Positions 5,351 through 48,905 of a stretch of DNA of 64,000 nt are shown piece after piece. Under the pieces are notes generated by a model. It worked only from the letters and a program-made list of their open reading frames with translations, had not been told where the DNA came from and made no database searches. A program made the position numbers and the translations under genes. This DNA comes from Candidatus Syntropharchaeum sp. (GTDB lineage Archaea > Halobacteriota > Syntropharchaeia > Syntropharchaeales > Syntropharchaeaceae): contig JAOQII010000004.1 in NCBI GenBank assembly GCA_026134025.1, forward strand, positions 19,409 to 83,408. Direction: 5' to 3'. Each line of letters opens with the position of its first letter. The stretch's first letter is position 1.

Positions 5351-5407
5351 GAGTTCCCGATTAGAAGGGGTAAAGTGTGATGCGGCAGTAATTCAGGAGA
5401 AAATAAG

Positions 5408-8077
5408 ATGAGCGCATTGCAGCTGAAAGAACTCGATAAGATTTTTAATCCAGGTAGTATTGCCGTGATCGGTGCAAGCAATAAGAAGGAGTCCGTTGGG
5501 TACACACTCTTCAATAACTTAATCGGTGCAGGATATGAGGGGGTTGTCTATCCCGTAAACAAAAGTGCTCCAAGTGTGCAGGGTATCCACAGCTACAGGA
5601 GTGTTGATCAAATTCCAAGAAAGATCGATCTCGCACTAATTGCCGTTCCAGCAAAGACCGTCCCTGAGGTTATGCGCGAGTGTGGTGAATCAGGTATTAG
5701 AGGGGCGATCATCATCTCTGCGGGTTTTAAAGAGATCGGAGCAAAGGGTAAAGAACTCGAAGATGAAGTCCTTGATATTGCCAGAGATTATGACATCAGG
5801 TTCATAGGTCCAAACTGTCTCGGCATCATACGACCAAAGATTCATCTCAATGCGAGCTTCGCCCCGCTCATGCCGGATGATGGAAAAATTGCATTCATAT
5901 CTCAGAGTGGAGCATTATGTGCCGCGGTTCTCGACTGGTGTCATCATCGTGGGATCGGGTTCAGCTCATTTGTATCGGTCGGTTCGATGGCAGACATCAC
6001 ATTTGGAGATCTCATCGATTATTTTGGTATGGATCCAGATACAGGCGCCATCATACTCTATATCGAAGCCCTGAAAAATGTGCGGGGTTTCATGAGTGCT
6101 GCCAGACACTTTGCAAAGACCAAGCCAATAATTGTTGTAAAATCAGGAAGGTGTGAGCGCTCTGCAGCGGTTGCCACATCACATACAGGGGCGATGGCAG
6201 GAGACGACGATCTCTATGATGCTGCATTCAAACGTGCGGGTATCGTTCGTGTTACCAGGATCGAAGAACTCTTTGACTGTGCCGAAGCTCTCGATTCCCA
6301 GACCAGACCCACAGGTAATCACCTCGCCATCGTGACAAACGCCGGTGGCCCTGGAGTTATGGCTGCAGACGAGTTACTCTCACAGGGTGGTGAGCTTGCA
6401 AAGCTTTCAAATAAGACAATTGAGGCTTTAAATGCCTGTCTTCCTCCATACTGGAGTCATGGAAACCCTGTTGATATCCTGGGTGATGCAACCCCAGAAC
6501 GGTACCGTGATGCAACGTCGATCACACTCAGAGATCCAAATGTAGACGGCGTTCTTCTGCTCCTGACCCCTGTCTCGATGTCTGATTCAGAGCTTACAGC
6601 GAGGTACATCGTGGATTTAAACCGTGATATCTCACCTGGCGATGTCTTTAAACCTCTGCTTGCCTCATGGATGGGTGAGGCGCTGGTTGAGAAGGGGCGA
6701 AAGATACTGGAGTCTGGGGGTATTCCAAGTTTTGAGACACCTGAAAGTGCGGTTACCACATACCTCCACATGTACCAGTACACAAAGAACATCGCGTCCC
6801 TCTATGAGATGCCAGAGGACATTCTGACCGGGTTTCATCCTGCAAAAGACGAGGTTAAATCGATCTTCAGGACTCTTGCAAGAGAAGGGCGGGAGCTTCT
6901 AACCGTTTACGAATCGATGAAGGTGCTTGCAGCGTATGATATACCCACAGTAAAAACCATGTTAGCGCATGATCCAGAAGAGGCTATCAAGATCGCGGAT
7001 GAGATCGGCTATCCTGTGGCAATGAAGATCGTATCCCCACAGATCACACACAAGACGGATATCGGGTGTGTTAAACTCAATATCCAGACGCAGGAAGATG
7101 TAAGAACTGCGTTTGAAGAGATTAACCGCAATGCAGGAGAACACGATCCAGATGCAACGATTCATGGTGTTGCGATCCAGCCGATGGTAACTGGTGCGGG
7201 TTACGAGGTCATTATAGGATCGAAGCGGGATAAGCTCTTTGGACCTGCCATATTGTTTGGTGCAGGCGGCACGATGGTTGAGTACATCAGGGACCAAACG
7301 ATCGGTTTCCCTCCTCTAAATCAGGCGCTGGCACACAGGATGATCGAGGATACAAGAATATCAAAGATTCTCAAAAATGGTTTTAGAGGAAGTCCCCCGG
7401 CAAATATCCGCCTGATCGAGGAGGCACTTGTCAAGATTTCATTCATGCTCATAGATTTCCCTGAGATCGAAGAGATGGACATAAACCCGATCCATGTCAA
7501 TGATACCTCCCTTCTTGCACTTGATGCGCGAATTTTGATCAACCCTGGAAAGGTTAATATCAGTGAGCCACCTGGAAGCGATCTTATCATAAGCAGGTGT
7601 CCCACCAAATACAATCAGGAATGGACTTCGCCTGCAGGAGATAAAATTTTCTTCAGAGTCGTCCGTCCCGAGGATGAACCTATGTGGCTTGAGATGGTAA
7701 GATCCTTCTCTGATGAGACGATACGCCAGAGGTTCTTTGCCCCACTCTCTGAGATCGATCACCACATGGTGGTTCGATACTGCCACATCGATTACGACCG
7801 TGAGATTGCGATTGCGGCGTTTGTTGAAGGAGAGGAAGGATACAGGATGGTTGGCGTGGGTCGCGTGGTCATACTCTCGGACGAAAATACAGGTGAGTTT
7901 GGTATGGCGATACGTGATGAATATCAGGAAAGAGGTATCGGCAATAAGTTAGTTGACATAATGATCGAGATTGCCAGGGATTTCAGGTTAAGGACGATTA
8001 TAGGCGATGTGCTTGCCGATAATTACCGTATGTTGAAGATCGCAGAGGATAAAGGATTCAAGATAAAAACGCCATGA
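5408..8077 (+). CDS. Pat-like protein: NDP-forming acyl-CoA synthetase (ADP-forming ACS alpha/beta domains) fused to a C-terminal GNAT acetyltransferase
   Basis: 889 aa. N-terminal CoA-binding Rossmann (SIAVIGASNKKESVGY), succinyl-CoA-synthetase-like and ATP-grasp domains. The C-terminal roughly 150 aa carry GNAT motif A (QERGIGNKLVD). The architecture is the same as the bacterial lysine acetyltransferase Pat/PatZ. Confidence 0.75.
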   Translation: MSALQLKELDKIFNPGSIAVIGASNKKESVGYTLFNNLIGAGYEGVVYPVNKSAPSVQGIHSYRSVDQIPRKIDLALIAVPAKTVPEVMRECGESGIRGAIIISAGFKEIGAKGKELEDEVLDIARDYDIRFIGPNCLGIIRPKIHLNASFAPLMPDDGKIAFISQSGALCAAVLDWCHHRGIGFSSFVSVGSMADITFGDLIDYFGMDPDTGAIILYIEALKNVRGFMSAARHFAKTKPIIVVKSGRCERSAAVATSHTGAMAGDDDLYDAAFKRAGIVRVTRIEELFDCAEALDSQTRPTGNHLAIVTNAGGPGVMAADELLSQGGELAKLSNKTIEALNACLPPYWSHGNPVDILGDATPERYRDATSITLRDPNVDGVLLLLTPVSMSDSELTARYIVDLNRDISPGDVFKPLLASWMGEALVEKGRKILESGGIPSFETPESAVTTYLHMYQYTKNIASLYEMPEDILTGFHPAKDEVKSIFRTLAREGRELLTVYESMKVLAAYDIPTVKTMLAHDPEEAIKIADEIGYPVAMKIVSPQITHKTDIGCVKLNIQTQEDVRTAFEEINRNAGEHDPDATIHGVAIQPMVTGAGYEVIIGSKRDKLFGPAILFGAGGTMVEYIRDQTIGFPPLNQALAHRMIEDTRISKILKNGFRGSPPANIRLIEEALVKISFMLIDFPEIEEMDINPIHVNDTSLLALDARILINPGKVNISEPPGSDLIISRCPTKYNQEWTSPAGDKIFFRVVRPEDEPMWLEMVRSFSDETIRQRFFAPLSEIDHHMVVRYCHIDYDREIAIAAFVEGEEGYRMVGVGRVVILSDENTGEFGMAIRDEYQERGIGNKLVDIMIEIARDFRLRTIIGDVLADNYRMLKIAEDKGFKIKTP

Positions 8078-8110: not shown

Positions 8111-10471
8111 ATGAAAGATGGTAGCAGAGAATCTGAAGCTTCAGTGACTGGATTATCTGAGGAGGAAGCTGCAAAGCGAATCGAGAAGTTCGGGTACAAT
8201 GAGATACCTGAAAAGAAGGTGCACCCACTTTTGAAGTTTCTTTCTTACTTCTGGGGGCCAATCGCATGGATGATAGAGATTGCTGCAATTCTCTCGGCTG
8301 CGATCGGCGACTGGACAGATTTTGTGATAATCCTTGTGCTTCTCTTTCTAAATGGAGTCGTGGGGTTCTGGGAGGAGCGAAAAGCTGAGAATGTCGTCGC
8401 ACTTTTGAAACAGAAGTTAGCGATTCGATCCATGGTATTGAGAGATGGAAAGTGGCGAGATATTCCTGCAAGGGAGCTTGTACCAGGCGATATCGTCAGG
8501 ATAAAGATTGGAGAGATCATACCTGCCGATCTCAAACTCATTGAGGGCGGATATCTCACTGTCGATGAGTCAGCCCTGACCGGTGAATCGCTCCCGGTTG
8601 AGAAGGGAGAAGGGGATATCGCATATTCAGGTTCGGTTGTTACAAGAGGGGAAATGTTAGCTGTTGTTACAGCCACAGGATCTGATACATTCTTTGGAAG
8701 GACGGTTCAGCTCGTGGAAGAGGCGGGAACGGTGAGTTCATTCCAGAAGATGGTGATAAAAGTCGGAGATTACCTCATCATTATGGCACTGATCCTGATC
8801 TCCTTCACATTCATTGTTGCGATCTATCGTGGGGAGAGCCTGCTTGAGATGGCAACATTCGCACTTGTTCTGATGGTTGCAGCGATTCCCGCAGCACTGC
8901 CAGCGGTGCTATCGATCACAATGGCTGTTGGCGCCCTCAACCTCGCAAGAAGAAGTGCCGTTGTGACAAAACTCGTCTCAATAGAGGAGCTTGCAGGGGT
9001 TGATGTCTTATGTGCCGATAAGACCGGGACGCTCACGATGAATCAGCTAACCACCGGCGATCCTGTAACCTTCAACGACTACACAGATGAAGAACTCGCG
9101 CTCTATGCCGCCCTTGCCTCAGAAGGAGAGGATGCGATAGATAAGGCGATTCTAAAGCTTGTGGATGAGCTGAAAGTGGAAGATAAAGTCAAAGAGTACA
9201 GGCAGGTATCTTTTACCCCGTTTGATCCTGTGATAAAAAGAACAGAGGCAGAGGTATCAGATGGTGAAGATTTTAAGGTCACAAAAGGTGCTCCACAGGT
9301 GATTCTTGGATTGTGCGGGGGTAATTTAGAGGCTGAGAGGGTGGTTGAGGATTTTGCAGCAGAAGGATACAGATCGATCGCTGTTGCAAGAACTGAAGAG
9401 GGTAAATGGGAGCTTGTCGGGATCATACCGCTCTTTGATCCTCCGCGAGAAGATACACCCGCTGCGATCGAAGAGATCAAGGATCTCGGCGTTAAAGTCA
9501 AGATGTTGACAGGAGATAACATCGCCATTGCAAGACACATCGCAGAAATTCTCAATCTCGGTAGAAAGATACTCCCTATAGGAGATATCCTGAAGTTAAA
9601 GCGGGAGGCAGAGGTTGAACACCTGATAGAGGAGGCTGACGGCTTTTCAGAGGTTTTTCCTGAGCACAAATACCGCATAGTTGGTTATCTCCAGAAGCGC
9701 GGACATCTTGTTGGGATGACAGGAGATGGTGTCAATGATGCCCCTGCACTCAAGCGGGCAGACTGTGGAATCGCGGTTGCAGGGGCAACGGATGCTGCAA
9801 GAGCGGCTGCAGGGGTTGTATCACTTGAACCAGGGATCTCAATCATCAGGGACGCGATAGAAGAGGCAAGAAGAATCTTTCAGCGTATGGAAAGCTATGT
9901 CATCTACAGGATCACCGAGACAATACGGGTACTCTTCTTCATCGTATTTGCGATACTCATCTTCAATTTCTATCCGATAACAGCCCTCATGATCGTGCTT
10001 CTTGCCGTCTTAAACGATGCCCCGATACTCGCGATCGCATACGATAACGTGAAAAAGCTCAAAGAACCCGCACGATGGAACCTTGAGAAGATAATCTTAC
10101 TCTCAACACTTCTCGGATTTGTCGGTGTTATAAGCTCATTTCTGCTGTTTTATATCGGCGACAAGATCTTACTTTTAGGAAGGCCAGAGCTCCAGTCATT
10201 CATATTCCTGAAGCTTGCGGTTGCAGGGCATCTGACGATATTTGTGACGAGAAAAAGGGATCGGCTCTGGAAAAAACCATATCCCGGTGGTATCCTCTTC
10301 TGGTCTGCCATTGCAACAAAAATTCTTGCAACGCTCATCGTCGTCTACGGGATACTCGTAACCCCGATTGGATGGAAATTAGCGGGGCTTATCTGGGGAT
10401 ATGCTATTGTATGGATGCTCATCGCAGATCAGGCAAAGATGATGGCTATGCGAAGACTTGGGGAGTTTTAG
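8111..10471 (+). CDS. P-type ATPase, plasma-membrane H+-ATPase-like (P3A type)
   Basis: 786 aa; DKTGTLT phosphorylation motif (CADKTGTLTMNQLT), TGES, MTGDGVNDAPAL hinge, N-terminal EEAAKRIEKFGYNEI typical of P3A/P2 pumps, about 10 TM. Confidence 0.85.
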   Translation: MKDGSRESEASVTGLSEEEAAKRIEKFGYNEIPEKKVHPLLKFLSYFWGPIAWMIEIAAILSAAIGDWTDFVIILVLLFLNGVVGFWEERKAENVVALLKQKLAIRSMVLRDGKWRDIPARELVPGDIVRIKIGEIIPADLKLIEGGYLTVDESALTGESLPVEKGEGDIAYSGSVVTRGEMLAVVTATGSDTFFGRTVQLVEEAGTVSSFQKMVIKVGDYLIIMALILISFTFIVAIYRGESLLEMATFALVLMVAAIPAALPAVLSITMAVGALNLARRSAVVTKLVSIEELAGVDVLCADKTGTLTMNQLTTGDPVTFNDYTDEELALYAALASEGEDAIDKAILKLVDELKVEDKVKEYRQVSFTPFDPVIKRTEAEVSDGEDFKVTKGAPQVILGLCGGNLEAERVVEDFAAEGYRSIAVARTEEGKWELVGIIPLFDPPREDTPAAIEEIKDLGVKVKMLTGDNIAIARHIAEILNLGRKILPIGDILKLKREAEVEHLIEEADGFSEVFPEHKYRIVGYLQKRGHLVGMTGDGVNDAPALKRADCGIAVAGATDAARAAAGVVSLEPGISIIRDAIEEARRIFQRMESYVIYRITETIRVLFFIVFAILIFNFYPITALMIVLLAVLNDAPILAIAYDNVKKLKEPARWNLEKIILLSTLLGFVGVISSFLLFYIGDKILLLGRPELQSFIFLKLAVAGHLTIFVTRKRDRLWKKPYPGGILFWSAIATKILATLIVVYGILVTPIGWKLAGLIWGYAIVWMLIADQAKMMAMRRLGEF

Positions 10472-12137: not shown

Positions 12138-12713
12138 ATGGGATATCCAGGTAAGTGTAAGAAACAGTATGAAACCCCTCGCTATCCATGGCAACACGAG
12201 AAGCTCGAGGAAGATGCGAACCTCATAAAGAGGTATGGCCTCAGGAACAAACGGGAGCTGTGGAAAGCAGAGAGTACACTCAGAACATACAGACGAGAAG
12301 CGAGAGAATTGCTCGCAATAAGGGCATCAGGGATGGTCAGTGAGAGTGCAAAGCGAGAGATCGGCAACCTTGTTGATAGCCTCAAGCGGAAGGGAATTTT
12401 AAATATAGACGGTGAGCTGGAGGATATCTTAGCGCTTACGGTTGAGGATTTTCTAAACCGACGACTACAGACGATCGTAACTCAGAAAAATCTCGCAAGT
12501 TCGATGAGGCAATCGAGACAGTTCATCGTTCACGGACATATAGCGGTCGATGGTCGGCGGGTCACAATCCCGAGTTTCATGGTGAAACGAGGTCAGGAGT
12601 CAGGGGTTGATTACTACGTGCGTTCTCCGATCACGGACGAGATGCACCCTGTAAGACCTGCGATGTCCGTTGAGGTCACAGCAGAAGGAGAAGGGGTGAA
12701 CGTTGATGAGTAA
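12138..12713 (+). CDS. rps4: 30S ribosomal protein S4 (uS4)
   Basis: [26 protein letters not shown]-terminus is typical of archaeal S4. Follows S13 in the conserved order. Confidence 0.9.
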
Positions 12714-13089
12714 ATGGGCGGTTGCACATATCCATGCATCATTCAATAATACGATCATCACGATCACAGATCTGACAGGGGCTGAGGTGATCGCAAAGTC
12801 CTCTGGTGGGATGGTAGTGAAGGCTGCAAGGGATGAGAGTTCATCCTATACTGCTATGCAGATGGCGAGTGAACTTGCAGAGGAGATCAAGGACAAAGGT
12901 ATCACTGGAATTCACATCAAGGTAAGGGCTCCAGGTGGGCACAGAGAACATAGCCCAGGACCTGGTGCACAGCCGTCAATACGTGCTTTTGCAAGGGCGG
13001 GTCTCAGGATTGGCAGGATTGAGGATGTCACACCAATCCCGCACGATGGCACAAAGCCCAAGGGAGGAAAGCGCGGCAGGAGGGTGTGA
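12703..13089 (+). CDS. rps11: 30S ribosomal protein S11 (uS11)
   Basis: [25 protein letters not shown]...VRAPGG...[19 protein letters not shown] is a near-canonical archaeal S11. Confidence 0.92.
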
Positions 13090-13884
13090 GTGGCAATCGA
13101 GATTAATGTCATCGAGCTCACTGAGAGGTATGCAAAGTTCATAATATCTGGCCTGACACCCGCGTCTGCAAACGCGCTCAGGCGGTGCATGATCAATGAG
13201 GTACCGCGGATGGCGATCGATGAGGTTAATTTTTATGAAAATACATCAGTACTATTCGATGAACAGCTTGCATTGCGTCTTGGTCTCATACCACTCAGGG
13301 CAGATCCAGGACTTTACGTGCTGGAGGATGAGTGTACGTGTGAGGATGGCTGCTCACTCTGCCAGTCCACGGCTTCGATCAGTGCAGAAGGTCCCATAAA
13401 GATTTATTCGTCGGATCTCGTCATGGGCGATGAGAACATCTCGGTTGCAGATGATAATATATTGATCGTAGATCTCAAAGACGGGCAGAAACTTCTCTTG
13501 AACGCTATCATAAAGCTTGGAACAGGAGAAATGCACGCGAAATGGCAGAATGCTGTTGTATGTGGTTATAAAAACATCCCGCATGTGAGCATTACGGACT
13601 GCAACGATTGCGGTAGATGTGTTGATGTGTGTCCCAGAGACGTCTTTAAATGTGTGGATGGGCGTGTCATGATCGGGGATGATATCAACTGCTCATGCTG
13701 CAATCTCTGCGTGGAAGCCTGCGAGCTTGACGGAATCGTGATTGAAGAGGATCCTGAAGCGTTCCTCTTTAAACTTGAGACAGATGGAGGGATGACCGCG
13801 AGTGCGTTAATTGTCTATGCGGTTCGAATGCTTAGAGATAAGGCAGTCAGGCTGAAATCTGTGCTTGAGCGTTTTTCCCATTGA
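13090..13884 (+). CDS. rpoD: DNA-directed RNA polymerase subunit D (Rpo3) with 4Fe-4S cluster domain
   Basis: 264 aa, conserved position after S11, Cys clusters (CNDCGRCVDVCP, CSCCNLCVEAC). The last roughly 13 codons lie inside the 243-bp repeat. Confidence 0.85.
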   Translation: MAIEINVIELTERYAKFIISGLTPASANALRRCMINEVPRMAIDEVNFYENTSVLFDEQLALRLGLIPLRADPGLYVLEDECTCEDGCSLCQSTASISAEGPIKIYSSDLVMGDENISVADDNILIVDLKDGQKLLLNAIIKLGTGEMHAKWQNAVVCGYKNIPHVSITDCNDCGRCVDVCPRDVFKCVDGRVMIGDDINCSCCNLCVEACELDGIVIEEDPEAFLFKLETDGGMTASALIVYAVRMLRDKAVRLKSVLERFSH

Positions 13885-14088
13885 GCCTTATCCCGGTAAT
13901 CGTCGATATATTCTTCTCCTGCATCACAACACCGATCGTTGAAGAGGCACACTCGATCATCGGCTCTCTGAGTGAAACAACAATAAATTGCGCGCTCTTT
14001 GATAACTTTTTGATCATCTTTGCGACCTTCTCGACATTCACACCATCGAGCATCATATCTATCTCATCCAGTGCATAGAACGGTGCTG
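13846..14088. repeat. Copy 1 of a perfect 243-bp direct repeat, a duplicate of the smc 3' end (last about 75 codons, antisense) placed downstream of and overlapping the rpoD 3' end
   Basis: Nucleotide identity with 15706-15948 checked by eye. The ORF track shows identical 69-aa (minus) and 65-aa (plus) translations at both sites. Confidence 0.9.
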
Positions 14089-14118
14089 TCTGAAAAGAGA
14101 ATAAATTAGAGATCTGTC

Positions 14119-14892
14119 TTATTTCACCTCTGATTTTACAAATCCTTCTGTTCCGTTTATCAGCTCTTTAACTTCTTCTATTGGCGGTTCCTCTTTTGCA
14201 TGGTCACACTTATTACGAATATCCCCCAGCCATTCAATCTTTTTTCGTTTGGTTTCACTCAAATGACCCGCTTTACGCAATCCTTGGGCGAGTGAGTTGA
14301 TACCTTTAATAACAGTGTGATTCACAGGCGGCGTTGAAGTCTCGCATAAGGTCTTTAAATAGCGTTCCAATGCAACACCAGCAACCGCACCCGCAGCACG
14401 GATAAAACCGTGATCTAAAAGAAGTCTTGCCTCCTCTAATTCGCTTTCAACTAGATCTGCACTGATTGTTCTTCTTAATTTTAAGTTTTGTATTTCAAAG
14501 ACTTCAGGTAATGATAACAGTAAGTTCCTTTGTGTGTCAAAGAAATCTGTAAACTCTTTAATTATGTAATGCACATCAATCTTAGCCCAATCTTTTCGAA
14601 GTTGGAGTAAACATAAAATTTCCTCATATTCTTTTATAAATTCGTCTTTTCGATCAGATAAATATTCTTTTATCAGGGTTTCTCCTTTTGAATACCATAT
14701 TTGATATGATTGAACATATTTTCTTTGTTCCTCTCTAAAAGAGTTCTCGAATCACATCATTTCAGTATTTAAGTCATTTATATACGCAAACGTAAAGGTA
14801 TCAGATAAAAAACCAGTCACCTTTTTCTCAATTTCTTCTGCTTCCTTCTCCAATTCCCTAACAGTATGGATCAGTTCACTTAATTGTGTCAT
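14119..14892 (-). pseudogene. HEPN-domain protein (R-x4-H motif RNKCDH) interrupted by an in-frame TGA. A 47-codon N-terminal piece is followed by a 210-codon distal open frame; the listed GTG-initiated 151-aa ORF (14119-14574) is its terminal part
   Basis: Manual reverse-strand translation: ATG at 14892, in-frame TGA at 14752-14754, then a 59-codon stop-free frame continuing into ORF 14119..14574. The C-terminal GDIRNKCDHAKEE is the HEPN RNase signature. Confidence 0.5.
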
Positions 14893-14942
14893 TCATCTCA
14901 TCCCAAGTTCTTTAGACGTTTATTCTATTGAGAGATATCAAA

Positions 14943-15383
14943 TTATTCTTGCGTTAGGTATTCAAATGCACTGATATACTTGTATTTGATTACATTCTTG
15001 TATTTTGTTATCGTTCTTTCTTTTGCTACATCATGATACTTAGTTACCGTTCGTTGTTTAGCGACTTCGTGATACTTTGTGACTGTTCTCTCTTTTGGCA
15101 GATAAGTTACGACATATTGAAATTTGGAAGGTCGAAGTACTTCATAGGAGCAATTCAAAAATCTAGTACTATTAACCGTCCATTCGAATTGGTGGCTTTC
15201 ACCAGGCATCAAAAATACACTATCTGTTATAGCATTATATGATCGTTCAGTAGTTACTATATGGAAAACTACCTGAAACATTCCACCACTATCCTCTGTA
15301 TTCGTTATCATAACCATTAAATCAAGTAATTCGATAGACCCCAGTCCAGAGTACAACTTTAAAAAATGCTTATAAAAAACCAA
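14943..15383 (-). CDS. Hypothetical protein with C-terminal 11-aa tandem repeats (ERTVTKYHEVAKQ / RTVTKYHDVAKE / RTITKYKNVIKY)
   Basis: 146-aa ORF inside the repeat-flanked islet. Low GC. Confidence 0.35.
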   Translation of the reverse strand: MVFYKHFLKLYSGLGSIELLDLMVMITNTEDSGGMFQVVFHIVTTERSYNAITDSVFLMPGESHQFEWTVNSTRFLNCSYEVLRPSKFQYVVTYLPKERTVTKYHEVAKQRTVTKYHDVAKERTITKYKNVIKYKYISAFEYLTQE

Positions 15384-21968: not shown

Positions 21969-22880
21969 TTACATATTAAGAAGCGACATCGGAGTAAGTT
22001 CAACGATAATCCTGCCACGATTGCTCGATTTTGTGATCGTTGCGATCTCAGAAAGTCTGTAATCGCTTATCAGCACATTCTCCACCGCTTCATGGTAATC
22101 ATCATAAGGTATCTTTATCCTCACCCCATTTAACCGCTGCACGATCGGTGCTGGTGCGAGCGAGTGCTTGATATCCTCTACCTGATTGAGAAGTTCATCC
22201 TTCACGACCCATGGCGGAACAAACGGCGGATCAATCGCAATCTCTTCTTTTCTAACTTTAACAGCCTTTTCCACCTCATCTGAGATTTTTTTCAAGAGTT
22301 CAATCTCATTCAGCCGCTTGAAGGTATAGGGGAGCCTTCCAAGCATCGAGATATATCTTACTCCTTCTATCTGTGTTTCAGGTAGCCCAACCGCGACTAC
22401 TGGAACGTTCAACGTCTTGAAGACCTCTATCTTCTCCTCTATGCATCGTTTGAAGTTTCCAAACCCGATGAGGCAGACATCATGCTCCTCTATTATCTGA
22501 CGCTCTCGCAATGTCAGCTGCGCAATTCGCCTGCCAACACCCCTTGCAAGCCCTATAACGTTCGTCTGTGCCCCTTTCCTCCGCATAATCTCAGCCATAT
22601 CACAGACCGGGTGTGGCAGGTGGTGTCGAGTGATCGTTGGCGTCACAACCGCTATCTCTGTCCCAAGAAGCGGTGCCTTCCTGAGCATTCCCTGAATATC
22701 TGCAGCGACATTTTCTATTACCTCATACTCCTCTACAGGAGCCGTGAAGGTGATGGTCGCCTCCTGCGCAAAGATCCGCTGAGTTATGATGTATCCGCCA
22801 AGATCTACGATAAGCTCAACAAGTTCTCCGTGCCTGTACGATCCACCTTCAAATATATAGTTCTCATACATAGGATTCAC
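21969..22880 (-). CDS. Conserved archaeal hypothetical protein (possibly a methanogen marker-type protein)
   Basis: 303-aa ORF translationally coupled to leuS upstream. No recognisable catalytic motif from reading alone. Confidence 0.35.
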
Positions 22881-25711
22881 TCCACAAATATCGCGGCTTT
22901 CATCGGATAAGCGAGTTTACTCTTTCCTGCAGGGTCATAAGCGGCGTCTTCTGCATTATAGACGGAGACACTCGCACCAAATTCCTGTTTAAAGAAGTCT
23001 TTTGCCCTGTCAAGCACCTTAAACTCGTTTATATCGGTTGCAAGAAGTAGATCAATCTCTTTCTCACTTATCCCCTGGTAATCCTCGATCATACGCTTAA
23101 CAAGTTTCGGCATCTCCTTTTTGTATGACCTCATCTCAGGATTTTCCATGATATAACGCATCACATCACTCAGCTCCACCCTACCTTTACTTCGTCTGGA
23201 TAAGACAACCCGTCTCACCTCCTCTTTCCATTCTGGAGTGGTGTACAGTATTATCCGTCTGGGTGTGATCTTTGTGACCTTGAGGATCTCATTTATATCA
23301 TTGTATGTCGCCTCTACAAGCCGCTCTTCAAGTTCAATTCCTGGGTTTACGAATTCATCATCAACTTTGGGATAAGTCAGATCGGTTACACTGCTCTTTC
23401 CCATCTTTTCCAGAAGTTCTGCGGTTATATGCGGCACAAACGGTGCAAGAAGCCTTACCCAGCGATCCAAAATGTATCTCATCGTCCACACTGCCCCGGG
23501 TCTTGACCCGTCAGATCGTCTCCTGTACCACCTGAGATCGCTTTCTATCCCAAAGAATGCCTGCTGTATAGCAGATCTTGTGAAGAAATTATCGAGTGCT
23601 TCTGTCGTTATTTTTATTCGATCCTGTAACCTGTTAAGAATCCAGTAATCGATCGATTCAAGCTCCTTCTCACCCTCGCCCATCTCGATAATCTCGTTCG
23701 CGGTATTCCAGAACCTCTCAAGGTGGCGCTTGCTCGCTGTAACCTCTTTACTACGCCAGTCAAAGTCCTGCCATGGTTCTGCAGACCCCATAAGGAAGAA
23801 CCTCACGGTATCTGCACCAAACTTCTCGATCGCATCGCTCAAGAGAATTACATTACCTTTTGAAGAACTCATTTTCTCCCCTTCAAGAAGTCCGATACCA
23901 AAGACCACGAGCCCTCTTGGGTGATATTCTTCGCTGAAGATCGCTGTATGGTGAAAAAGCTGGAACGTGAGGTGATTTGAGATTAAATCCTTTGCAGAAA
24001 GCCTGTAGTCGTACGGATACCAGTACATAAATTCTTCCTGCATCTTTTTTAGAATTTCCGGATCGACCCTGCACTCAGTATTTTTCTGCAGAAATATCCT
24101 GTCGAATACTGCGTCATCGAGAAGCTCAGGATCGATATCTTTGAGGTGCTGGGCGATCGTGTAGTACGCCATGTAAATCGTTGAATCACTCAAGGGTTCG
24201 ATGATCCATGCAGGATCCCAGGGAAGGGGTGTACCAAGTCCAACCTTCCTCGTGCATGCCCAGTCATTGAGCCAGTCAACGGTCCTTAAAAACTCACTCT
24301 CAAGCTCAGGTGGGATGAGTTTTGTCCTATCATGGATGCAGGTTTTCACAGAATCCTTCCAATCAGGGTCGCTGTATCTCACAAACCACTGATCCTTCAG
24401 GAGCTTGATGACAGCAGATGTGTTGCAACGGCAGACGACAGGGCGCTCACTGAACTCATACAGGCTCGCCGCATCACCACGTTCAGTGAGTTTTATCTTT
24501 ACATCATTCCGTGCCTGATATACAGGATCTCCACCAAACTCCTGTAGCATAAACCCCCTGTTAAACTCTGCAGAATAAAGTTCGTCGGTCGCACTGGTGA
24601 GCTTCTCATCCTCCTGATCTTTTATCCCCATCCGATTCACCACTTCTGCGGCAGGAATCTTTTCATAACCTTCAATCCTGATTACAGGAATCGGACGGAT
24701 GTTTTTGTATTTTCCAGCATTATGGAGATCTCTAAGTGCGATAAAGTCAAACGGGGCATGTGCAGGAACGCTCATTACAATTCCTGTACCCATATCCATC
24801 TCAACAAATGTCGCTGGAAGAATCTCGACTATATCATCATTCAAAGGGTTCTTTACCACCCGATCTATGAACCTCGAGCCTTTTACAAACGACTCGATCT
24901 CAAGGTCAAAGTCCTGATACTTGAGCTTCTCTGCCGCTTCTCTACTCAAGAGCCAGTTTTCATTGCGATCTTTCAACTTTGCGATGACATAGTCACCATC
25001 AGGGTTAATCCAGAGGTTTGTAACCCCGAAAAGCGTCTCGGGACGGAGTGTCGCAGTTGGAACCACCATCCCATCAGGGAGGCGAAACTTGATGAGGACA
25101 AACTCACTGATCGTAGCCTTCTCGCCAGTTAGGAGATCATGATCCCCAAGAGGATTATCGCAATTTGGGCAGAATTTGACAGGATGCTCACCTTTAGCCA
25201 CAAGACCTTTATCTTTAAGTTGATGATACTGCCATACGATAAACTTACTGTACTGAGGGTCTACGGTTGTAAATCTTCTCCTCCAATCGATCGAGAGTCC
25301 CATCGACCTCATAATATCTGTATAGTCATTGCTGAAGTATCGTACGATCTCATGAGGGTCGGTGAACCGTTCCATAACATCCTTTGGAACTTTGTAGACC
25401 TCCCTGTAGAGCTTTATAGCCTCCTGATCACCTCTTGCGATCCGGTTAGAGACGCCGATCACGGGCGTACCTGTCACATGGAAGCCCATCGGGAAGAGGA
25501 CGTTATAACCCTGCATTCGCTTGAATCTTGCTATAACATCAGGTACAGTGTAAGTTCTACCATGTCCGATATGCATTGCACCAGAGGGGTATGGATATGC
25601 AACATTCAGGTAAAATTTATCACCTAAACCTGGATCTGCTTCATACGCCCCCTTATCCTCCCAGATCTTCTGCCATTTAGATTCTATAAGCTTGAATTCG
25701 TATTTTCCCAT
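22877..25711 (-). CDS. leuS: Leucyl-tRNA synthetase (archaeal/eukaryal type)
   Basis: [22 protein letters not shown]-terminus, HIGH motif ([13 protein letters not shown]), KMSKS variant (KMSSSKGN), CP1 editing domain length. Start moved to MGKYEF. Confidence 0.95.
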
Positions 25712-25815
25712 CCTGAAACACACCTATCCCTCATTCAATTTAAAGGTAAAAGAAGTTTTTGGTTGCAGGCTTTGCACAACTTTAAATAGAAAAACCAGCG
25801 AATAAGAATGGAGGT

Positions 25816-26859
25816 ATGGTAAAGCGCGTATCAGCCCTGATAACTGTGATGGCAATCGCATCGATCACGGCATTTTCAGGATGTTTTGGGGTAGCACCTG
25901 CTGATACAATCGAGGATGAGAATACGATCGAAGAAACACCAGTATTTACGCCTGATTCCAACAATAGCAGCCTTGATAGTACACCGCCGAGCATACCACT
26001 CCCAGTTGCTATGTCTAACGTTAGCGTAGATGCACCCCCTCTCATTGAAGCGGAGGATCGAGAAGAGGTCGAAACTCCAGAAACGTCCACCCCTACCTCG
26101 CGCCCAACACCAGCCACGCCTCCTGTTCCTGTAATCGATGTGGTGGTACTGGATATACAGTTTGATCCGCCAGGAAATGACCGTGAGAACCTCAATGGTG
26201 AGTGGGTCAGGATCCTGAACAGGGGTGCGTCTGAGGTTGATATTGGTGGATGGAGCCTTGCGGATCGTAAGAACCATCTATACATCTTTCCAGAGGATTT
26301 TACGCTCCTTCCAGATGAGAGTGTGAAGGTGCATGTTGGCGCAGGGGAAGATACTCATACAGAACTCTACATGAATGAAAAGACCCCAATCTGGAATAAT
26401 GATGGAGATACTGCAACGCTCTCTGATGCAAATAATGTGATCATCGATCAGTACAGCTACACGCCCGAGACAGTGCCGACATCCTCTAAAACCGCCACAC
26501 CAACGCCAGCTCAAACTCAAACAGGTTCTATTGGGATTGTGATAGAAGAGATCAACTACGACCCAGAAGGTAACGATCGTGATAACCTCAACGAGGAGTG
26601 GGTCATGATCTTAAATACGGGTGATGACAATATAGATATGGGAGGATGGATCATCGTTGATGCGAAGAATCATTCGTACGTCTTTCCAGAAGGCTTTGAA
26701 CTTCCCCCTGTTTCGAGGGTCAAGGTTCATGTGGGAATAGGTGATGACAGCGATACAGACCTCTATATGAACGGAAAAAACCCGATCTGGAACAATGATG
26801 GCGATACTGCAACGCTCTTCGATTCACGAGGGGAGATCGTGGATCAATACAACTATTGA
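25816..26859 (+). CDS. Secreted lipoprotein with two lamin-tail domains (LTD) separated by Thr/Pro-rich linkers
   Basis: Signal peptide plus lipobox-like FSGC. Two copies of about 110 aa: NLN(G/E)EWV(R/M)ILN...GGW(S/I)...DxKNH(L/S)Y(I/V)FPE...VKVHVG...DLYMN...PIWNNDGDTATL...IVDQYSY. Confidence 0.65.
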   Translation: MVKRVSALITVMAIASITAFSGCFGVAPADTIEDENTIEETPVFTPDSNNSSLDSTPPSIPLPVAMSNVSVDAPPLIEAEDREEVETPETSTPTSRPTPATPPVPVIDVVVLDIQFDPPGNDRENLNGEWVRILNRGASEVDIGGWSLADRKNHLYIFPEDFTLLPDESVKVHVGAGEDTHTELYMNEKTPIWNNDGDTATLSDANNVIIDQYSYTPETVPTSSKTATPTPAQTQTGSIGIVIEEINYDPEGNDRDNLNEEWVMILNTGDDNIDMGGWIIVDAKNHSYVFPEGFELPPVSRVKVHVGIGDDSDTDLYMNGKNPIWNNDGDTATLFDSRGEIVDQYNY

Positions 26860-27481: not shown

Positions 27482-27608
27482 TGGTATAGCGGCCATAGCG
27501 GCGGGGAAACTCCTGTACCCATCCCGAACACAGAAGATAAGCCCGCCAGCGTTCCTTGTTGTACTGAGGTGCGCGAGCCCTCGGGAAGTCTGGATCGCTG
27601 CTATACCA
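27482..27608 (+). rRNA. rrf: 5S ribosomal RNA (standalone copy)
   Basis: GGTATAGCGGC...CCCATCCCGAACACAGAAGATAAGCC...GCTGCTATACC. Terminal helix pairing (ggtatagc/gctatacc) and the conserved loop C/helix motifs of archaeal 5S. Confidence 0.8.
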
Positions 27609-29766: not shown

Positions 29767-30726
29767 GTGAATCATAGTATTATCGTACTTGGGTTTGTTA
29801 TAGTTCTGGCTTTAAGTGTGGGTAGCGCGGGTGCGACTGAGATATGGGTGCCTGATGATTATTTGACAATTCAAGCAGCGGTGAATAGCGCTTCAGCGTA
29901 TGATACAATAATTGTTAAAGATGGGACATATACAGAGAATGTTCGTGTTAATACGGCTCATCTAACGATCAAGTCTGAGAATGGGTCTGGTTCAACAATG
30001 GTCCAAGCAGCAAGTTCAAACGATCATGTCTTTGATATAACCGCGAACTATGTGAATATCAGCGGGTTTACGGTGACGGGGGCAACATCAGGCACATGGA
30101 CCACTGGAATTCGAGTTAATAATGCTGATTCTTGCACGATATCTGAAAACAACGTAAATGGCAATAGGCACGGAATACGTCTTTCAGGTTCGAGCAGTCA
30201 GAACATAATCAGAGATAACACGGTAAGTTCAAACGAGAAGTATGGTGTTTACCTAAGCTCTGACTCAACCGATGAGAACGAGATCATCCAGAACACGCTG
30301 GCTTCAAATGAAGCAGGGGTTTATATCAATAATGCAGACTATAACAACATCTCCTGCAACTACATCTTCAACAACAGCTACGGCATCTATCTCAAAGCTG
30401 GATCGACAGATAACACGATCAAACACAACAACATCATCGCAAACGGTGAGCTACAAGATGATGGTAGTTACCACTGGCAGTTCTACAACGACCAGGAGGA
30501 GGATGTCAGTGCGACCAATAACTGGTGGGGCACGACCGATGACGACCAGATCAACGCGAGCATCTATGACTGGCATGATAACTCAGAAAAAGGTAATGTT
30601 ACGTATCTCCCGAAGCTCGGTGGGCCATCCTCGTGCGCTGAGATCCCTGAACCCCTCACGCTTGTGATGGTCACGCTGGGGATTCTTGGGGTGATCGGGG
30701 CTGTTTACAGGAAGAGAGAGCGGTGA
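29767..30726 (+). CDS. Secreted right-handed parallel beta-helix (NosD/PbH1-like) repeat protein with C-terminal PEP-CTERM-type sorting signal
   Basis: Signal peptide, tandem about 22-aa beta-helix repeats (NNVNGNRHGIRLSGSSSQNIIRDNTVSSNEKYGVYLS...). C-terminus IPEPLTLVMVTLGILGVIGAVYRKRER has the PEP motif, a TM helix and a basic tail. Confidence 0.65.
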   Translation: MNHSIIVLGFVIVLALSVGSAGATEIWVPDDYLTIQAAVNSASAYDTIIVKDGTYTENVRVNTAHLTIKSENGSGSTMVQAASSNDHVFDITANYVNISGFTVTGATSGTWTTGIRVNNADSCTISENNVNGNRHGIRLSGSSSQNIIRDNTVSSNEKYGVYLSSDSTDENEIIQNTLASNEAGVYINNADYNNISCNYIFNNSYGIYLKAGSTDNTIKHNNIIANGELQDDGSYHWQFYNDQEEDVSATNNWWGTTDDDQINASIYDWHDNSEKGNVTYLPKLGGPSSCAEIPEPLTLVMVTLGILGVIGAVYRKRER

Positions 30727-31939: not shown

Positions 31940-32680
31940 TTACATCCAGATTGGACAGATGACGAGGTAAAAAATATTAAGGAGAGCGTGAGAGATGAGA
32001 ACACCCGCGATGCTCCCGCTCTTTGATACCACATACCCGAAGAAGATCGAGGTCAGGAATACAAGCAGAATGAGCCACAGCCCTGATGCATAAGAGACAA
32101 AGAATGTGGCATAGAGGGTTGATGTCAGAAGGATCGCAAAAAGGGGGTTTTTCATAGCTCTTTCAACCGATTGCTGGATGATACCCCTGAATATAAGCTC
32201 ATCTGTGAATGCAGCAAGCATGAGGATCAATGATGCAGGGATTGGTGTTCCAGGTCCCGATGGCATGAGTAGCATCCATTCGAGATATCCGATAAAGGGA
32301 CCTGCAATGATGCATACTATCTGCAATATAGGATCTCTCAAAAGCATGCCCACCTCTTCGAGTGATATTCCAAGTACCGTGATCAGAATCAGCGAACCAG
32401 CAAGGAGTGAGATCGTTACCGCTATAAGATACCCCTCGTACGTGATGAGCTCAACAGGGATTGAGAGTGTTATGATACGATAAAGAGGAATGAGCGTCAT
32501 CACCTGGAAGAGGCGGGTAAAATCTGAAGAGAGGTCTTTTATGAAGGTGAACTGGAGGATCAAAAGTAATAAGATTGCGATATTGGATGTGATGCCAGCC
32601 TTCGGACCTGCGAAACATGTTGAGACCTCAGCGAGGATAATCAAGAGCGAGGTAAGTATCAGATGAGATACGGGTCGCAT
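31940..32680 (-). CDS. CPBP-family intramembrane metalloprotease (CAAX protease/Abi domain)
   Basis: Polytopic membrane protein with CPBP motif 1 (FTDELIFRG, EExxxR-like) and motif HxxxN (SHALLN). Confidence 0.75.
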   Translation of the reverse strand: MRPVSHLILTSLLIILAEVSTCFAGPKAGITSNIAILLLLILQFTFIKDLSSDFTRLFQVMTLIPLYRIITLSIPVELITYEGYLIAVTISLLAGSLILITVLGISLEEVGMLLRDPILQIVCIIAGPFIGYLEWMLLMPSGPGTPIPASLILMLAAFTDELIFRGIIQQSVERAMKNPLFAILLTSTLYATFFVSYASGLWLILLVFLTSIFFGYVVSKSGSIAGVLISHALLNIFYLVICPIWM

Positions 32681-32817: not shown

Positions 32818-33486
32818 ATGAAGATGATTAGAATGGCACTGGTTGGAGTGCTTCTGATGATGGTGGTTATGCCGGCGGTTGGGGCTACATTCACGCTTGC
32901 TGATGAAGTGAAAAATTCGGTCGATAGCCAACCATATATCGTTATAGTTATGGAGCAGGGGGGTGGACCACCTGTTATACTAAAGCAAGGTGAGTCATAC
33001 GAGGTTCTTAGCGGCGTGCCTGTCAACTTCACGGCGGTATATATCTGGAAATGGCCTGGGAATGAGTTGAGTGATAATGAGATATTGGATATCGTACAAA
33101 GTGATGGAGAGACCATCAATAAATTTCAACAAAATACAGTTACTTCGCAAGCGTTCAATATAAAGAATATGTGGAAGGTGTATATCAATGAATCTACGGG
33201 TGACAGCACGGTATTAGGAGAAGGTGGACCATTGGATTTGAAGTGGAAATTCATACCGCGTTGCTACCTAGTTGGATGGACGCCGGCAGATAAAGTAAAT
33301 GAATACTATCCAGGCAAGGTTGGATCAACGTTTGATGTGACTGCAATGTGGAATAAATGGTGTTGGGGATCATCAATTCTTACAATAGAAGATATAGGTA
33401 TCGTCCCAGAACCCACCACTCTCGCCTTGACAGTCCTTGGCATCCTGGGCATTCTTGGATTTGTTAGAAGGAGAAGAGAGGCGTAA
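32818..33486 (+). CDS. PEP-CTERM-type sorting-signal protein (secreted)
   Basis: Signal peptide MKMIRMALVGVLLMMVVMPAVGA. C-terminus VPEPTTLALTVLGILGILGFVRRRREA. Confidence 0.65.
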   Translation: MKMIRMALVGVLLMMVVMPAVGATFTLADEVKNSVDSQPYIVIVMEQGGGPPVILKQGESYEVLSGVPVNFTAVYIWKWPGNELSDNEILDIVQSDGETINKFQQNTVTSQAFNIKNMWKVYINESTGDSTVLGEGGPLDLKWKFIPRCYLVGWTPADKVNEYYPGKVGSTFDVTAMWNKWCWGSSILTIEDIGIVPEPTTLALTVLGILGILGFVRRRREA

Positions 33487-47198: not shown

Positions 47199-47483
47199 AA
47201 GGAATCCCCCGTATTATCTCTTTACTACGAGTTTCTATATATATGTATTTTCATTTGGTAATCGATTAGCGTGGAATTTGAGCGAATAGTTCTTTGGAAA
47301 GATTTTTAAATCGCAACTCATAGTGTTAATAACGATAACGACTCCTGGAGGTTCAAGAATGGGAGAGATGACAGAGGAGCAGAAACGGGTGAAGGTTCAG
47401 GCATGCAGGGATGAAGTGGGGGATAAGTTCCCGATGAAGACCTGCATCGAGCACTGCCCGCTCTATGAGATCTGTAAGGATCT

Positions 47484-47569
47484 GCCGAGGTAGCCAAGCG
47501 GCCTACGGCGCTGGTCTTGAAAACCAGTGGGGCATACGTCCCGCAAGGGTTCAAATCCCTTCCTCGGCG
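47484..47569 (+). tRNA. tRNA-Ser (anticodon TGA), class II with long variable arm
   Basis: Acceptor stem GCCGAGG/CCTCGGC, anticodon loop CTTGAAA, long extra arm, T-loop GGTTCAAATCC. Confidence 0.85.
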
Positions 47570-47578
47570 TTTTTTTTT
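47570..47578 (+). terminator. Oligo-T tract immediately 3' of tRNA-Ser (archaeal-type terminator)
   Basis: A run of nine T residues directly after the discriminator base. Confidence 0.45.
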
Positions 47579-47876
47579 GGGAAAGAGGCAATGCGTCTCT
47601 ATCGTAATTTTTTAATGTTGCATGACTCACACGACAAAACACCCACCTGTGGCAGGGCCACTGACGTGTTAGGTCGGAGACTGAGTTAAGAGGTAAGGTG
47701 AGATGCACCTCATGCTGAAAAATCACAATATTTGAGGTTTATCAACCCCGGGCACTTGATCTGAACGCTAATCGAGAGCGGTTGATGGATGAATGGGGAC
47801 TTAGCTGATCAGGTATTAAATGTTGCCATAAAGATATAAACAAATAAATTAAGTTCGAATAGTATGGTGGTAAGCC

Positions 47877-48905
47877 ATGGGTGATTACAGAGATCGGAGT
47901 TATTTATCTGCGATAGAAGCCGCTAAATTTCTAAATATTTCTGTGAAGAAATTGCACGGATTAACAAGAAATAATACTATCGAATACAAAAAATCAGCCA
48001 GCGGTCAGATGAGATACGATCTGGAAGACCTGAAAAAATACGCTGAAGAAAATCATATACAATTGGATGGCGTGAATATAGAAATAAAACGTCTCTCTCA
48101 GCTTAAAATAGACAACACCATTCAAAAATTCATTTTTGGGAGTTCTATGGAGATGAAAGAGTTAGAAGATGATTCGGTACATCTCATGATCACTTCGCCA
48201 CCGTATTTTAACGCTAAAATGTATACAAATGAGCCGATTGAAGGCGATTTAGGGAATGTTCATGATTTAAATGAATGGTTTTCAGATATATCAAAAGTTT
48301 GGAAAGAGGTTTATCGAGTATTACAACCCGGTAGAAAAGCCTTTATTAACATAATGAATCTTCCCATACGAGAAAATAAAACTTTCAGGAGTCTAAATCT
48401 GGTTGGTAAAACAATTGATGTTATGGAAGATATTGGTTTTATTTTTAAGAGAGACATAATATGGCATAAAACAAACGGTGTTAAAGCACACTTCGGAACG
48501 TATCCATATCCAGGCGGTATATTGTTAAATAACATGCACGAATTCATATTAGAATTTAGCAAACCCGAGAAGAGAGGATTTAAAAAATACGGACATCTAA
48601 CCAAAGAACAGAAAGAAAAATCAAAAATAGAAAAAGATTTCTGGTTGAAATTAAAAAACAGTGATGTATGGTTGATAAAACCAGAAAAAAGCGGGGATAA
48701 CCGTAATCATGTAGCGCCTTTCCCCTATGAACTTCCTTTTCGGTTGATCAAAGCCTACAGTTACATTTCTGAGACCGTACTCGATCCCTTTGCGGGCTCA
48801 TTTGTTACATTGAAAGCCGCAAAAGATTTAGAAAGAAACGGAATTGGGTATGAGATAAATAAAGAAATTCTCAAGGAGGCACTGATTGAATTTGAAAGTG
48901 AGTAA
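47877..48905 (+). CDS. DNA methyltransferase (N4-C/N6-A, beta-class, SPPY motif) with N-terminal HTH
   Basis: Motif IV ITSPPYF precedes motif I LDPFAGSFVT. N-terminal MerR/excisionase-like HTH (LSAIEAAKFLNISVKKL). GC visibly lower than its surroundings. Confidence 0.8.
   Translation: MGDYRDRSYLSAIEAAKFLNISVKKLHGLTRNNTIEYKKSASGQMRYDLEDLKKYAEENHIQLDGVNIEIKRLSQLKIDNTIQKFIFGSSMEMKELEDDSVHLMITSPPYFNAKMYTNEPIEGDLGNVHDLNEWFSDISKVWKEVYRVLQPGRKAFINIMNLPIRENKTFRSLNLVGKTIDVMEDIGFIFKRDIIWHKTNGVKAHFGTYPYPGGILLNNMHEFILEFSKPEKRGFKKYGHLTKEQKEKSKIEKDFWLKLKNSDVWLIKPEKSGDNRNHVAPFPYELPFRLIKAYSYISETVLDPFAGSFVTLKAAKDLERNGIGYEINKEILKEALIEFESE

Follow-up and report, generated by a model that had tools for sequence, protein, structure and literature searches.

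Does an archaeal protein that joins an acyl-CoA synthetase-like module to an acetyltransferase domain keep both active sites, or is it a counterpart of the bacterial regulator PatZ, whose synthetase part is considered dead? This question is raised by the gene at positions 5408..8077 of a 64,000-nucleotide stretch of contig JAOQII010000004.1 (the window) from Candidatus (Ca.) Syntrophoarchaeum. The first-pass annotation of the gene, made from the sequence alone, read it as a Pat/PatZ-type lysine acetyltransferase of a methanogen. We consider, with a probability of about 0.5, that the protein may be a bifunctional enzyme in which a working ADP-forming acyl-CoA synthetase (ACD) and a lysine acetyltransferase of the Pat type share one chain. 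What is established here is the architecture, the match in fold, the organism, and that every catalytic residue that we checked is present and conserved across the family.

The open reading frame (ORF) lies on the plus strand, starts with ATG and ends with TGA at 8075-8077. A Shine-Dalgarno-like AGGAG is located at 5395-5399 (+), 8 nt upstream of the start codon. The 889-aa product contains the CoA-binding, ligase-CoA and ATP-grasp domains and the C-terminal GNAT (GCN5-related N-acetyltransferase) domain, in the order that the first-pass annotation gave, and every Pfam match exceeds its curated cut-off. The GNAT domain is matched by Acetyltransf_3 (residues 747-885, 2.3e-09) and Acetyltransf_1 (residues 791-884, 1.6e-08). 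The subdomain order 1-2-5-4-3, that is, CoA-binding, two flavodoxin-like and ATP-grasp subdomains, follows from Pfam, from the alignment with Nmar_0206 over residues 12-700 and from the fold. Residues 8-886 align end to end with the E. coli PatZ structures 9it0/9isq (E 2.5e-151). The AlphaFold2 model, built on 37 homologues, has a predicted local distance difference test score (pLDDT) of 84.3 and a predicted template modelling score (pTM) of 0.82. It superimposes on apo-PatZ (9isq_A) with template modelling (TM) scores of 0.78/0.79 across 894 columns, and TMt values are 0.89 on ACD1 alpha, 0.94 on beta and 0.86 on Nmar_0206. In the loop that carries the phosphohistidine (the swinging loop), pLDDT falls to 62-68, as expected of a mobile loop. 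Chance is excluded as the source of the fused ORF, because full-length homologues number thousands (45-99% identity). The fusion and its domain architecture are thus confirmed as real.

In GNATs of types I and II, the synthetase-like domain, including that of Salmonella enterica Pat (SePat) and PatZ, is called catalytically dead because the catalytic histidine is missing (PMC3195501; PMC12184503; PMC8556138), and the last of these papers generalises this to both types. In PatZ, L245 replaces H254 of ACD1 (PMC12184503). The first-pass annotation proposed to check whether this histidine is degenerate in the window protein as well. It turned out to be intact: H259, in a full-length SHTGA loop, GRCERSAAVATS-H259-TGAMAGD, aligns with H254 of the alpha subunit of Korarchaeum ACD1 and with H256 of Nmar_0206. 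The corresponding loops are GRTEVGARAAASHTGSIAGS (SHTGS) in Korarchaeum ACD1, GKSESGARAASSHTGSLAGS (SHTGS) in PH0766 and GRSPEGAKAAMSHTGALMGS (SHTGA) in Nmar_0206. In contrast, the PatZ loop, GRSPAAQR----LLNTTAGMD, has a four-residue deletion and no histidine. The second histidine of the ACD phosphoryl relay, H535 in Nmar_0206 (PMC11494057), is also present, as H548 of the ATP-grasp domain in the HK[ST]D context common to ACDs. E220 corresponds to E211 of 2csu, being matched through the 39-residue spacing to the histidine, and D691 corresponds to D212 of PH1789; both assignments were checked by residue spacing against the P. horikoshii homologues. Brasen et al. 2008 is said to have found E218 alpha and D212 beta essential in the Pyrococcus ACD. 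These sites of the P. furiosus (Pfu) enzyme match E220 and D691, and its second ATP-grasp histidine, His71 beta, is the equivalent of H548. The window protein thus has the phosphohistidine of an ACD together with H548, E220 and D691, and it does not lack the histidine whose absence marks a type I GNAT. The alternative that the first-pass annotation gave, a genuine ADP-forming synthetase with an appended GNAT, is therefore at least as well supported as its main proposal.

The rest of the site points the same way. The acyl-pocket residues L138, F151, A169 and G359 are as in true ACDs; G359 corresponds to G355 of Nmar_0206, and PatZ has Asp at this position. K26 matches K23 of PatZ. R26, R81 and H676 of PatZ are replaced by S29, T84 and N, and the Ser and the Asn are those of Nmar_0206, which has Ser and Leu at the two Arg sites. 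The ACD module is 39.3% identical to Nmar_0206 and 34.0% to PatZ, and the ATP-grasp part is 42.5% identical to the former vs 31.9% to the latter. The ATP-grasp part scores 171 bits against the beta subunit of the Korarchaeum enzyme (ckcACD1) vs 121 bits against that of PatZ. For these comparisons, the PatZ and Nmar_0206 sequences were rebuilt from printed alignments, and their numbering was validated against 16 residues quoted in papers. Judged by its residues, the synthetase module is not degenerate and is closer to true ACDs than to PatZ.

We also compared the acetyltransferase domain with solved structures. The residues R754, F756, E809, F810, G822 and G824 of PatZ correspond to R775, F777, E830, F831, G843 and G845. 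The catalytic Glu (E830), the gating motif (R775/F777) and the P-loop Q840-E-R-G843-I-G845 are all intact. The stretch QERGIGNKL, which the first-pass annotation had picked out as the acetyl-CoA-binding motif A, occupies residues 840-848 and indeed fits the GNAT P-loop pattern Q/R-x-x-G-x-G/A. Two features taken together, an intact ACD histidine and a GNAT without acetyl-CoA-binding residues, had been named in advance as evidence against a Pat; the first is present, and the second is not. The C-terminal 154 residues (736-889) match PatZ (3e-18), the GNAT of Streptomyces lividans PatA (SlPatA, 2e-12), Sulfolobus Pat (9e-7) and mycobacterial Pat (about 1e-4). Apart from the uncharacterised acetyltransferase 2ge3, a marginal match (E 0.0015), all significant solved relatives are protein lysine acetyltransferases. 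By these matches the domain is of the Pat type, that is, it belongs to the protein lysine acetyltransferase lineage and not to the small-molecule GNATs.

The protein therefore resembles several known systems and coincides with none of them. With E. coli PatZ (YfiQ) and S. enterica Pat it shares the four-domain order in a chain of about 890 aa, the full-length alignment and the GNAT catalytic Glu, gating Arg/Phe and P-loop; overall identity is about 31-34% and GNAT identity 28%, and PatZ differs in the shorter loop without His, in its R26, R81 and H676, and in Asp at the G359 site, where the window protein carries ACD-type residues. Nmar_0206, a fused 4-hydroxybutyryl-CoA synthetase, has the same subdomain order (E 8e-146, 39% identity), both catalytic histidines and the acyl pocket. 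Unlike the window protein, it has no GNAT, and the score of 600 bits against an equivalog cut-off of 1300 indicates that the window protein is not the 4-hydroxybutyrate enzyme. The two-subunit ACDs (Ca. Korarchaeum cryptofilum ACD1, PDB 4xyl; Pyrococcus ACD, PH0766 + PH1789) match with 321-387 bits in alpha and 170 bits in beta (TMt 0.88-0.94) and share the SHTG loop, the second histidine in HK[ST]D and the Glu and Asp positions, but their subunits are separate polypeptides with no acetyltransferase domain. The same family of Pat-type GNATs includes SlPatA (type II; 4nxy/4u5y), Sulfolobus solfataricus Pat (3f8k) and mycobacterial Pat (4oll, 4ava). SlPatA, however, has the reversed domain order and a synthetase-like domain reported to lack the histidine, S. 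solfataricus Pat is a stand-alone GNAT, and mycobacterial Pat has a cyclic nucleotide-binding (cNMP-binding) domain instead. We class the protein as a His-retaining variant of the ACD-GNAT fusion and not as a PatZ orthologue, because the dead synthetase domain that characterises type I GNATs is not found in it. Deposited annotations of the protein are inconsistent and include 'acetyl CoA synthetase subunit alpha', 'acetate--CoA ligase (ADP-forming)', 'GNAT family N-acetyltransferase' and 'bifunctional ...'.

The distribution of the fusion was assessed in a scan of one genome per species, which gave 236 confirmed relatives; the locus counts below refer to the best 80 of them. Archaea account for 73 of the 80 loci: dozens of Bathyarchaeia, eight Thermoplasmata, Methanosarcinales, Methanoperedens, Nitrososphaerales and Thorarchaeota. 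The first-pass annotation was right in seeing the type I GNAT order, but called this architecture bacterial; the fusion is common in archaea and is not specifically bacterial. Homologues with 62% identity from anaerobic methanotrophic archaea of group 2 (ANME-2) / Ca. Methanogaster are named 'Acetate--CoA ligase [ADP-forming] I'. A library clustered at 50% identity contains 45,956 matching proteins at E <= 1e-3, of which 11,395 reach E <= 1e-30.

In the 120 closest clusters (52-99% identity) and the query, S258-H259-T260-G261, H548-K549, Q840 and G845 are invariant (121/121), and G843 is kept in 119/121. The genome loci gave a similar picture for the ACD residues (H259 78/79, E220 79/79, H548 77/80, D691 74/80) and for the GNAT residues (R775 80/80, E830 79/79, G845 79/79, P-loop 78-79/79). 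The conservation of H259 and H548 in close relatives points to purifying selection. The first impression from the closest sequences, that the histidine is universal in fusions, was overturned by the 50%-clustered library. Of its best 150 representatives, 36-49% identical to the query, 111 are fusions, 37 are fused ACDs that stand alone (about 700 aa) and 2 belong to neither group. The histidine is present in each of the 37 stand-alone ACDs. Among the 110 fusions with an aligned loop region, it is kept in 81 and lost in 29, and the His-less loops are scrambled or shortened. H548 is kept in 4/29 His-less vs 64/81 His-retaining fusions (Fisher p = 7e-10, not corrected for phylogeny). The 29 His-less fusions also lose T260 and G359, yet they keep R775 (28/29) and G843 (28/29). 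Because the His-less fusions mostly lose H548, T260 and G359 and keep the GNAT, it appears that the ACD site decays as a unit once it is unused; in the window protein it has not decayed.

By a simple residue test, 42 of the 110 fusions have both sites intact and 38 have a degenerate ACD with an intact GNAT, which is the condition of PatZ; a further 19 combine an intact ACD with changes in the GNAT residues, and in 11 both are altered, all of these counts being subject to alignment error. The window protein is one of those with both sites intact, which form the largest class. The 19 representatives with an intact ACD and altered GNAT catalytic or P-loop residues are the mirror image of PatZ. 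A few fusion representatives are much longer (1012-1435 aa) and have extra N-terminal regions.

The host bears on the possible substrate. MCW7075983.1, 'GNAT family N-acetyltransferase [Candidatus Syntrophoarchaeum sp.]', matches the product with 100% identity, and OFV68611.1 of Ca. Syntrophoarchaeum caldarius with 98%; the next relative, from Ca. Syntrophoarchaeum sp. GoM_oil, has 77% identity and the same downstream gene. In the NCBI taxonomy the genus belongs to Halobacteriota, class Ca. Syntropharchaeia. Its relatives convert alkanes via alkyl-CoM and beta-oxidation to acetyl-CoA, which is oxidised by acetyl-CoA decarbonylase/synthase (ACDS) and the Wood-Ljungdahl pathway (PMC10322722). 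The window also encodes an McrC homologue, an FrhB-like gene and Fpo/Nuo-like genes, which fit an archaeon bearing methyl- or alkyl-coenzyme M reductase (MCR/ACR). From the protein identity and the described alkane-oxidation route it follows that the host is a butane-oxidising Ca. Syntrophoarchaeum, neither a methanogen nor the Methanothrix-like acetate activator that the first-pass annotation supposed.

How might such a bifunctional enzyme work? We infer both activities, the substrate, the targets and any coupling between the sites from conserved residues and homology. The ACD module would be of the fused [1-2-5-4-3] type and catalyse acyl-CoA + ADP + Pi <-> acid + ATP + CoA, with phosphoryl transfer via phospho-H548 and phospho-H259. 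Acetyl-CoA is the obvious candidate substrate, as butane catabolism would funnel into it. The GNAT would acetylate lysines of target proteins with acetyl-CoA, with Glu830 in the role of general base and the pyrophosphate held by Q840-G845. To judge from Pat, PatZ and RpPat, its likeliest targets would be AMP-forming acyl-CoA ligases. Pat/PatZ enzymes are characterised by acetylation of the active-site lysine in AMP-forming acyl-CoA synthetases, by binding acetyl-CoA cooperatively and by a tetrameric state. The large module probably also serves as an oligomerisation scaffold and an acetyl-CoA sensor for the GNAT, as in PatZ.

Several observations weigh against two working activities. In NCBIfam, no curated equivalog cut-off that would assign a substrate is reached. 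The score for TIGR02717 (AcCoA-syn-alpha) is narrowly below the cut-off (560.0 vs 567.15 bits), and the others are far lower: HydDutCoALig 600 vs 1300, AcCoALig_Archglob 478 vs 1200 and HydPropCoALig 448 vs 1300 bits. PatZ also keeps the Glu, the Asp and the second histidine (H531), so this trio alone is not diagnostic of activity. Conservation reflects selection on residues and is not proof of net turnover; a phosphohistidine could be a regulatory switch. The neighbours of the gene give no functional support. Among the window ORFs of at least 230 aa, covering 64 kb of the genome, Pfam gave no AMP-binding or SIR2 match, so both the candidate target, acetyl-CoA synthetase of the AMP-forming kind (Acs), and a deacetylase are lacking there. 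For this reason the link to regulation of Acs by lysine acetylation, which the first-pass annotation proposed along with a search for Acs and sirtuin genes, remains pure inference. In the full-text literature we found no paper that characterises or assays any His-retaining ACD-GNAT fusion. Two apparent precedents were rejected: the ANME-2a 'Acd', which was expressed and assayed with DTNB, is the two-subunit form and not a fusion (PMC7414198), and FCS1, a feruloyl-CoA synthetase of metagenomic origin, is an ACD that carries no GNAT.

It is possible, though in our opinion unlikely, that the protein is only a regulator of the Pat kind. The ACD-like module would then bind acetyl-CoA, ATP or phosphate and control or scaffold the GNAT, with no net interconversion of acyl-CoA and acid, and the role of the conserved histidines would be ligand binding or a phospho-switch. 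The full-length alignment and the fold match to PatZ are consistent with this, and the regulatory domain of PatZ is required for its GNAT to be active and binds acetyl-CoA and phosphate as ACD1 does (PMC12184503). PatZ retains its ATP-grasp residues without the loop histidine, and about a quarter of the fusion representatives have taken the degenerate route. However, the window protein keeps the histidine within SHTG, a loop of full length and the acyl pocket, although the His-less lineages lose them together. The acetyl-CoA-binding R26 and R81 of PatZ are not conserved in it, and its ACD module is nearer to active ACDs than to PatZ.

The opposite arrangement also seems improbable to us: a primarily catabolic, energy-conserving ACD whose GNAT would act in cis, tuning the synthetase or the oligomer by auto-acetylation, or on a small molecule. 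Several databases name the window protein and its ANME-2 homologues acetate-CoA ligase (ADP-forming), and the 19 representatives with altered GNAT residues fit such a role. In Bathyarchaeia the gene lies near an IOR-type 2-oxoacid:ferredoxin oxidoreductase. Enzymes of this type are the classical acyl-CoA suppliers to ACDs, as in Pyrococcus peptide fermentation. Auto-acetylation that affects oligomerisation has been reported for E. coli PatZ (PMC8556138). On the other hand, the nearest solved GNAT relatives are trans-acting, including SlPatA, which was crystallised with Acs (PMC12184503), and in the clade of the query the catalytic and gating residues of the GNAT hardly vary. Moreover, Ca. Syntrophoarchaeum is described as oxidising acetyl-CoA fully through ACDS and the Wood-Ljungdahl pathway and not as excreting acetate (PMC10322722).

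More doubtful is the idea of an acetyltransferase gated by energy charge through coupled sites. Here the ACD would produce acetyl-CoA out of acetate, ATP and CoA for the adjacent GNAT, or phosphorylation of His259/His548, set by the ATP/ADP.Pi and acyl-CoA/acid ratios, would switch the GNAT; the His-retaining fusions would be ancestral, and enterobacterial Pat/PatZ a degenerate derivative. His-retaining fusions form the largest class, with a wide occurrence in Bathyarchaeia, Thermoplasmata, ANME-2 and alkane-oxidising archaea. In a rough neighbour-joining tree of the ACD module, which carries no support values, PatZ is a long-branch sister of the His-retaining fusions examined. If this idea is true, the statement about an inactive regulatory domain in type I proteins is valid for a minority only.

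The scenario of the first-pass annotation, a PatZ orthologue whose degenerate synthetase domain switches off AMP-forming Acs in a Methanothrix-like methanogen, is very improbable: the GNAT is of the Pat type and Pat homologues commonly target AMP-forming acyl-CoA ligases (PMC6640162, RpPat target table), but the host is Ca. Syntrophoarchaeum, the ACD histidine is intact and neither Acs nor Sir2 is encoded among the window ORFs searched, and only the general idea of acyl-CoA-ligase acetylation survives.

What would the bifunctional enzyme mean? The sequence is already public, and this is not a new system, the architecture and the ACD chemistry each being known. The claims made here rest on about 200 close relatives and 110 more distant representatives. 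In them, the largest class of fusions keeps a complete ACD apparatus together with a complete Pat-type GNAT, which corrects the textbook generalisation of a dead synthetase domain, and the His-less lineages lose the rest of the ACD site with the GNAT kept. Reviews call archaeal GNATs typically single-domain, and the frequency of the fusion in archaea contrasts with this. Should both activities prove real, a single polypeptide would link acetyl-CoA/ATP metabolism with protein acetylation in uncultivated, biogeochemically important archaea (alkane oxidisers, ANME-2, Bathyarchaeia), and the 'acd' genes counted by metagenome surveys of archaeal acetogenesis may in part be acetyltransferases. The fusion also gives a simple way to test the descent of Pat from a working enzyme.

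Table 1. Positions of the gene, its domains and catalytic codons in the window, and example loci from Bathyarchaeia.
Feature	Coordinates	Strand	Basis
Whole gene, 889-aa ACD-GNAT fusion protein, stop included	5408..8077	+	ORF, Pfam, PatZ alignment, model
CoA-binding Rossmann-like subdomain 1, residues 17-141	5456..5830	+	Pfam CoA_binding_2 1.9e-24
Succ_CoA_lig flavodoxin-like subdomain 2, residues 159-295	5882..6292	+	Pfam 4.2e-57
E220 codon (within Succ_CoA_lig subdomain 2)	6065-6067	+	2csu E211 equivalent by spacing
Phosphohistidine swinging loop, residues 247-268	6146..6211	+	Alignment to ACDs
Catalytic His259 codon CAT	6182-6184	+	Aligned to ckcACD1 SHTGS, PH0766 SHTGS, Nmar_0206 H256
Ligase_CoA_2 subdomain 5, residues 307-461, contains acyl-pocket G359	6326..6790	+	Pfam 9.8e-15
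ATP-grasp subdomains 4/3, residues 491-711	6878..7540	+	Pfam ATP-grasp_5 1.1e-85
Second His548 codon, ATP-grasp domain	7049-7051	+	Equivalent to Nmar H535
D691 codon, ATP-grasp domain	7478-7480	+	Equivalent to PH1789 D212
Pat-type GNAT domain, residues 747-885	7646..8062	+	Pfam Acetyltransf_3/1; PDB matches
Catalytic Glu830 codon, GNAT	7895-7897	+	Residue mapping to PatZ
GNAT motif A / P-loop QERGIGNKL (Q840, G843, G845), residues 840-848	7925..7951	+	Sequence
Bathyarchaeia example loci (of L002-L080)	L012 9323-9850; L046 1861-3180; L050 6084-8372; L036 13468-15141; L069 15253-17001

Upstream of the gene are a 1-phosphofructokinase, which scores above the TIGR03828 cut-off, and an aldolase of the PRK06852 type. 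On the downstream side, a gap of 33 bp separates it from a type IIIA plasma-membrane proton-efflux P-type ATPase (8111-10471 (+), 1002 bits, cut-off 615), and then comes a Lon_C-domain protein. The short flanking gaps, 57 and 33 bp, suggest co-transcription. The ATPase (79% identity) also lies 3' of the ACD-GNAT gene in Ca. Syntrophoarchaeum GoM_oil, and it is absent from all 80 other loci compared. The ATPase was therefore rejected as a functional partner: a pairing found only in GoM_oil indicates lineage synteny and not a conserved module. In GoM_oil (L081), where the ATPase occupies 12713-15121, a 132-aa Cation_ATPase_N fragment at 9606-10004 stands directly 5' of the ACD-GNAT gene and is 43% identical to residues 15-137 of the window ATPase. 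It looks as if the GoM_oil gene had been inserted in or beside a duplicated 5' end of the ATPase gene. Recent horizontal transfer of the window gene was considered and rejected, as there is no compositional signal (GC 0.479 vs 0.458 for the window and 0.47-0.49 for the neighbours).

The neighbourhood in Bathyarchaeia is different. The gene immediately upstream codes for an ACT-domain protein (20 loci), an AMP-forming ligase of the PaaK kind (18 loci) and the IOR-type oxidoreductase (19 loci) are nearby, and NuoE/F-like and [NiFe]-hydrogenase genes follow downstream. This setting suits both an ACD consuming acyl-CoA and a Pat-like regulator of an AMP-forming ligase, and it does not discriminate between them.

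A few other features of the window deserve mention. The MCR_C (methyl-coenzyme M reductase operon protein C) homologue (21969-22880 (-), 2.9e-95) adjoins a leucyl-tRNA synthetase-like gene (22877-25723), and there is no mcrABG in the window. The Fpo/Nuo-like run at 56969-60670 (+) consists of a NuoB-like gene with an N-terminal DUF4234 extension, a small ORF, a NuoD-like and a NuoH-like gene. It is followed by a phosphopantothenate synthetase gene of CoA biosynthesis (60684-61472). A lone 5S rRNA gene is located at 27485-27606 (+) (98.8 bits), and the window contains neither a 16S nor a 23S gene. At 47483-48905 (+) there is a tRNA-Ser (TGA) and, about 300 bp on, a gene with HTH_17 and N6_N4 DNA methylase domains; this stretch could be the edge of an element integrated at the tRNA. 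A cluster of probable surface or secreted proteins (25816-26859, 29767-30726, 31940-32680 (-), 32818-33486) includes one with a pair of lamin-tail domains, one of the NosD/beta-helix kind, an Rce1-like CAAX protease and one that ends in a PEP-CTERM-like motif. The last two could represent a sorting signal of the archaeosortase type with a nearby protease.

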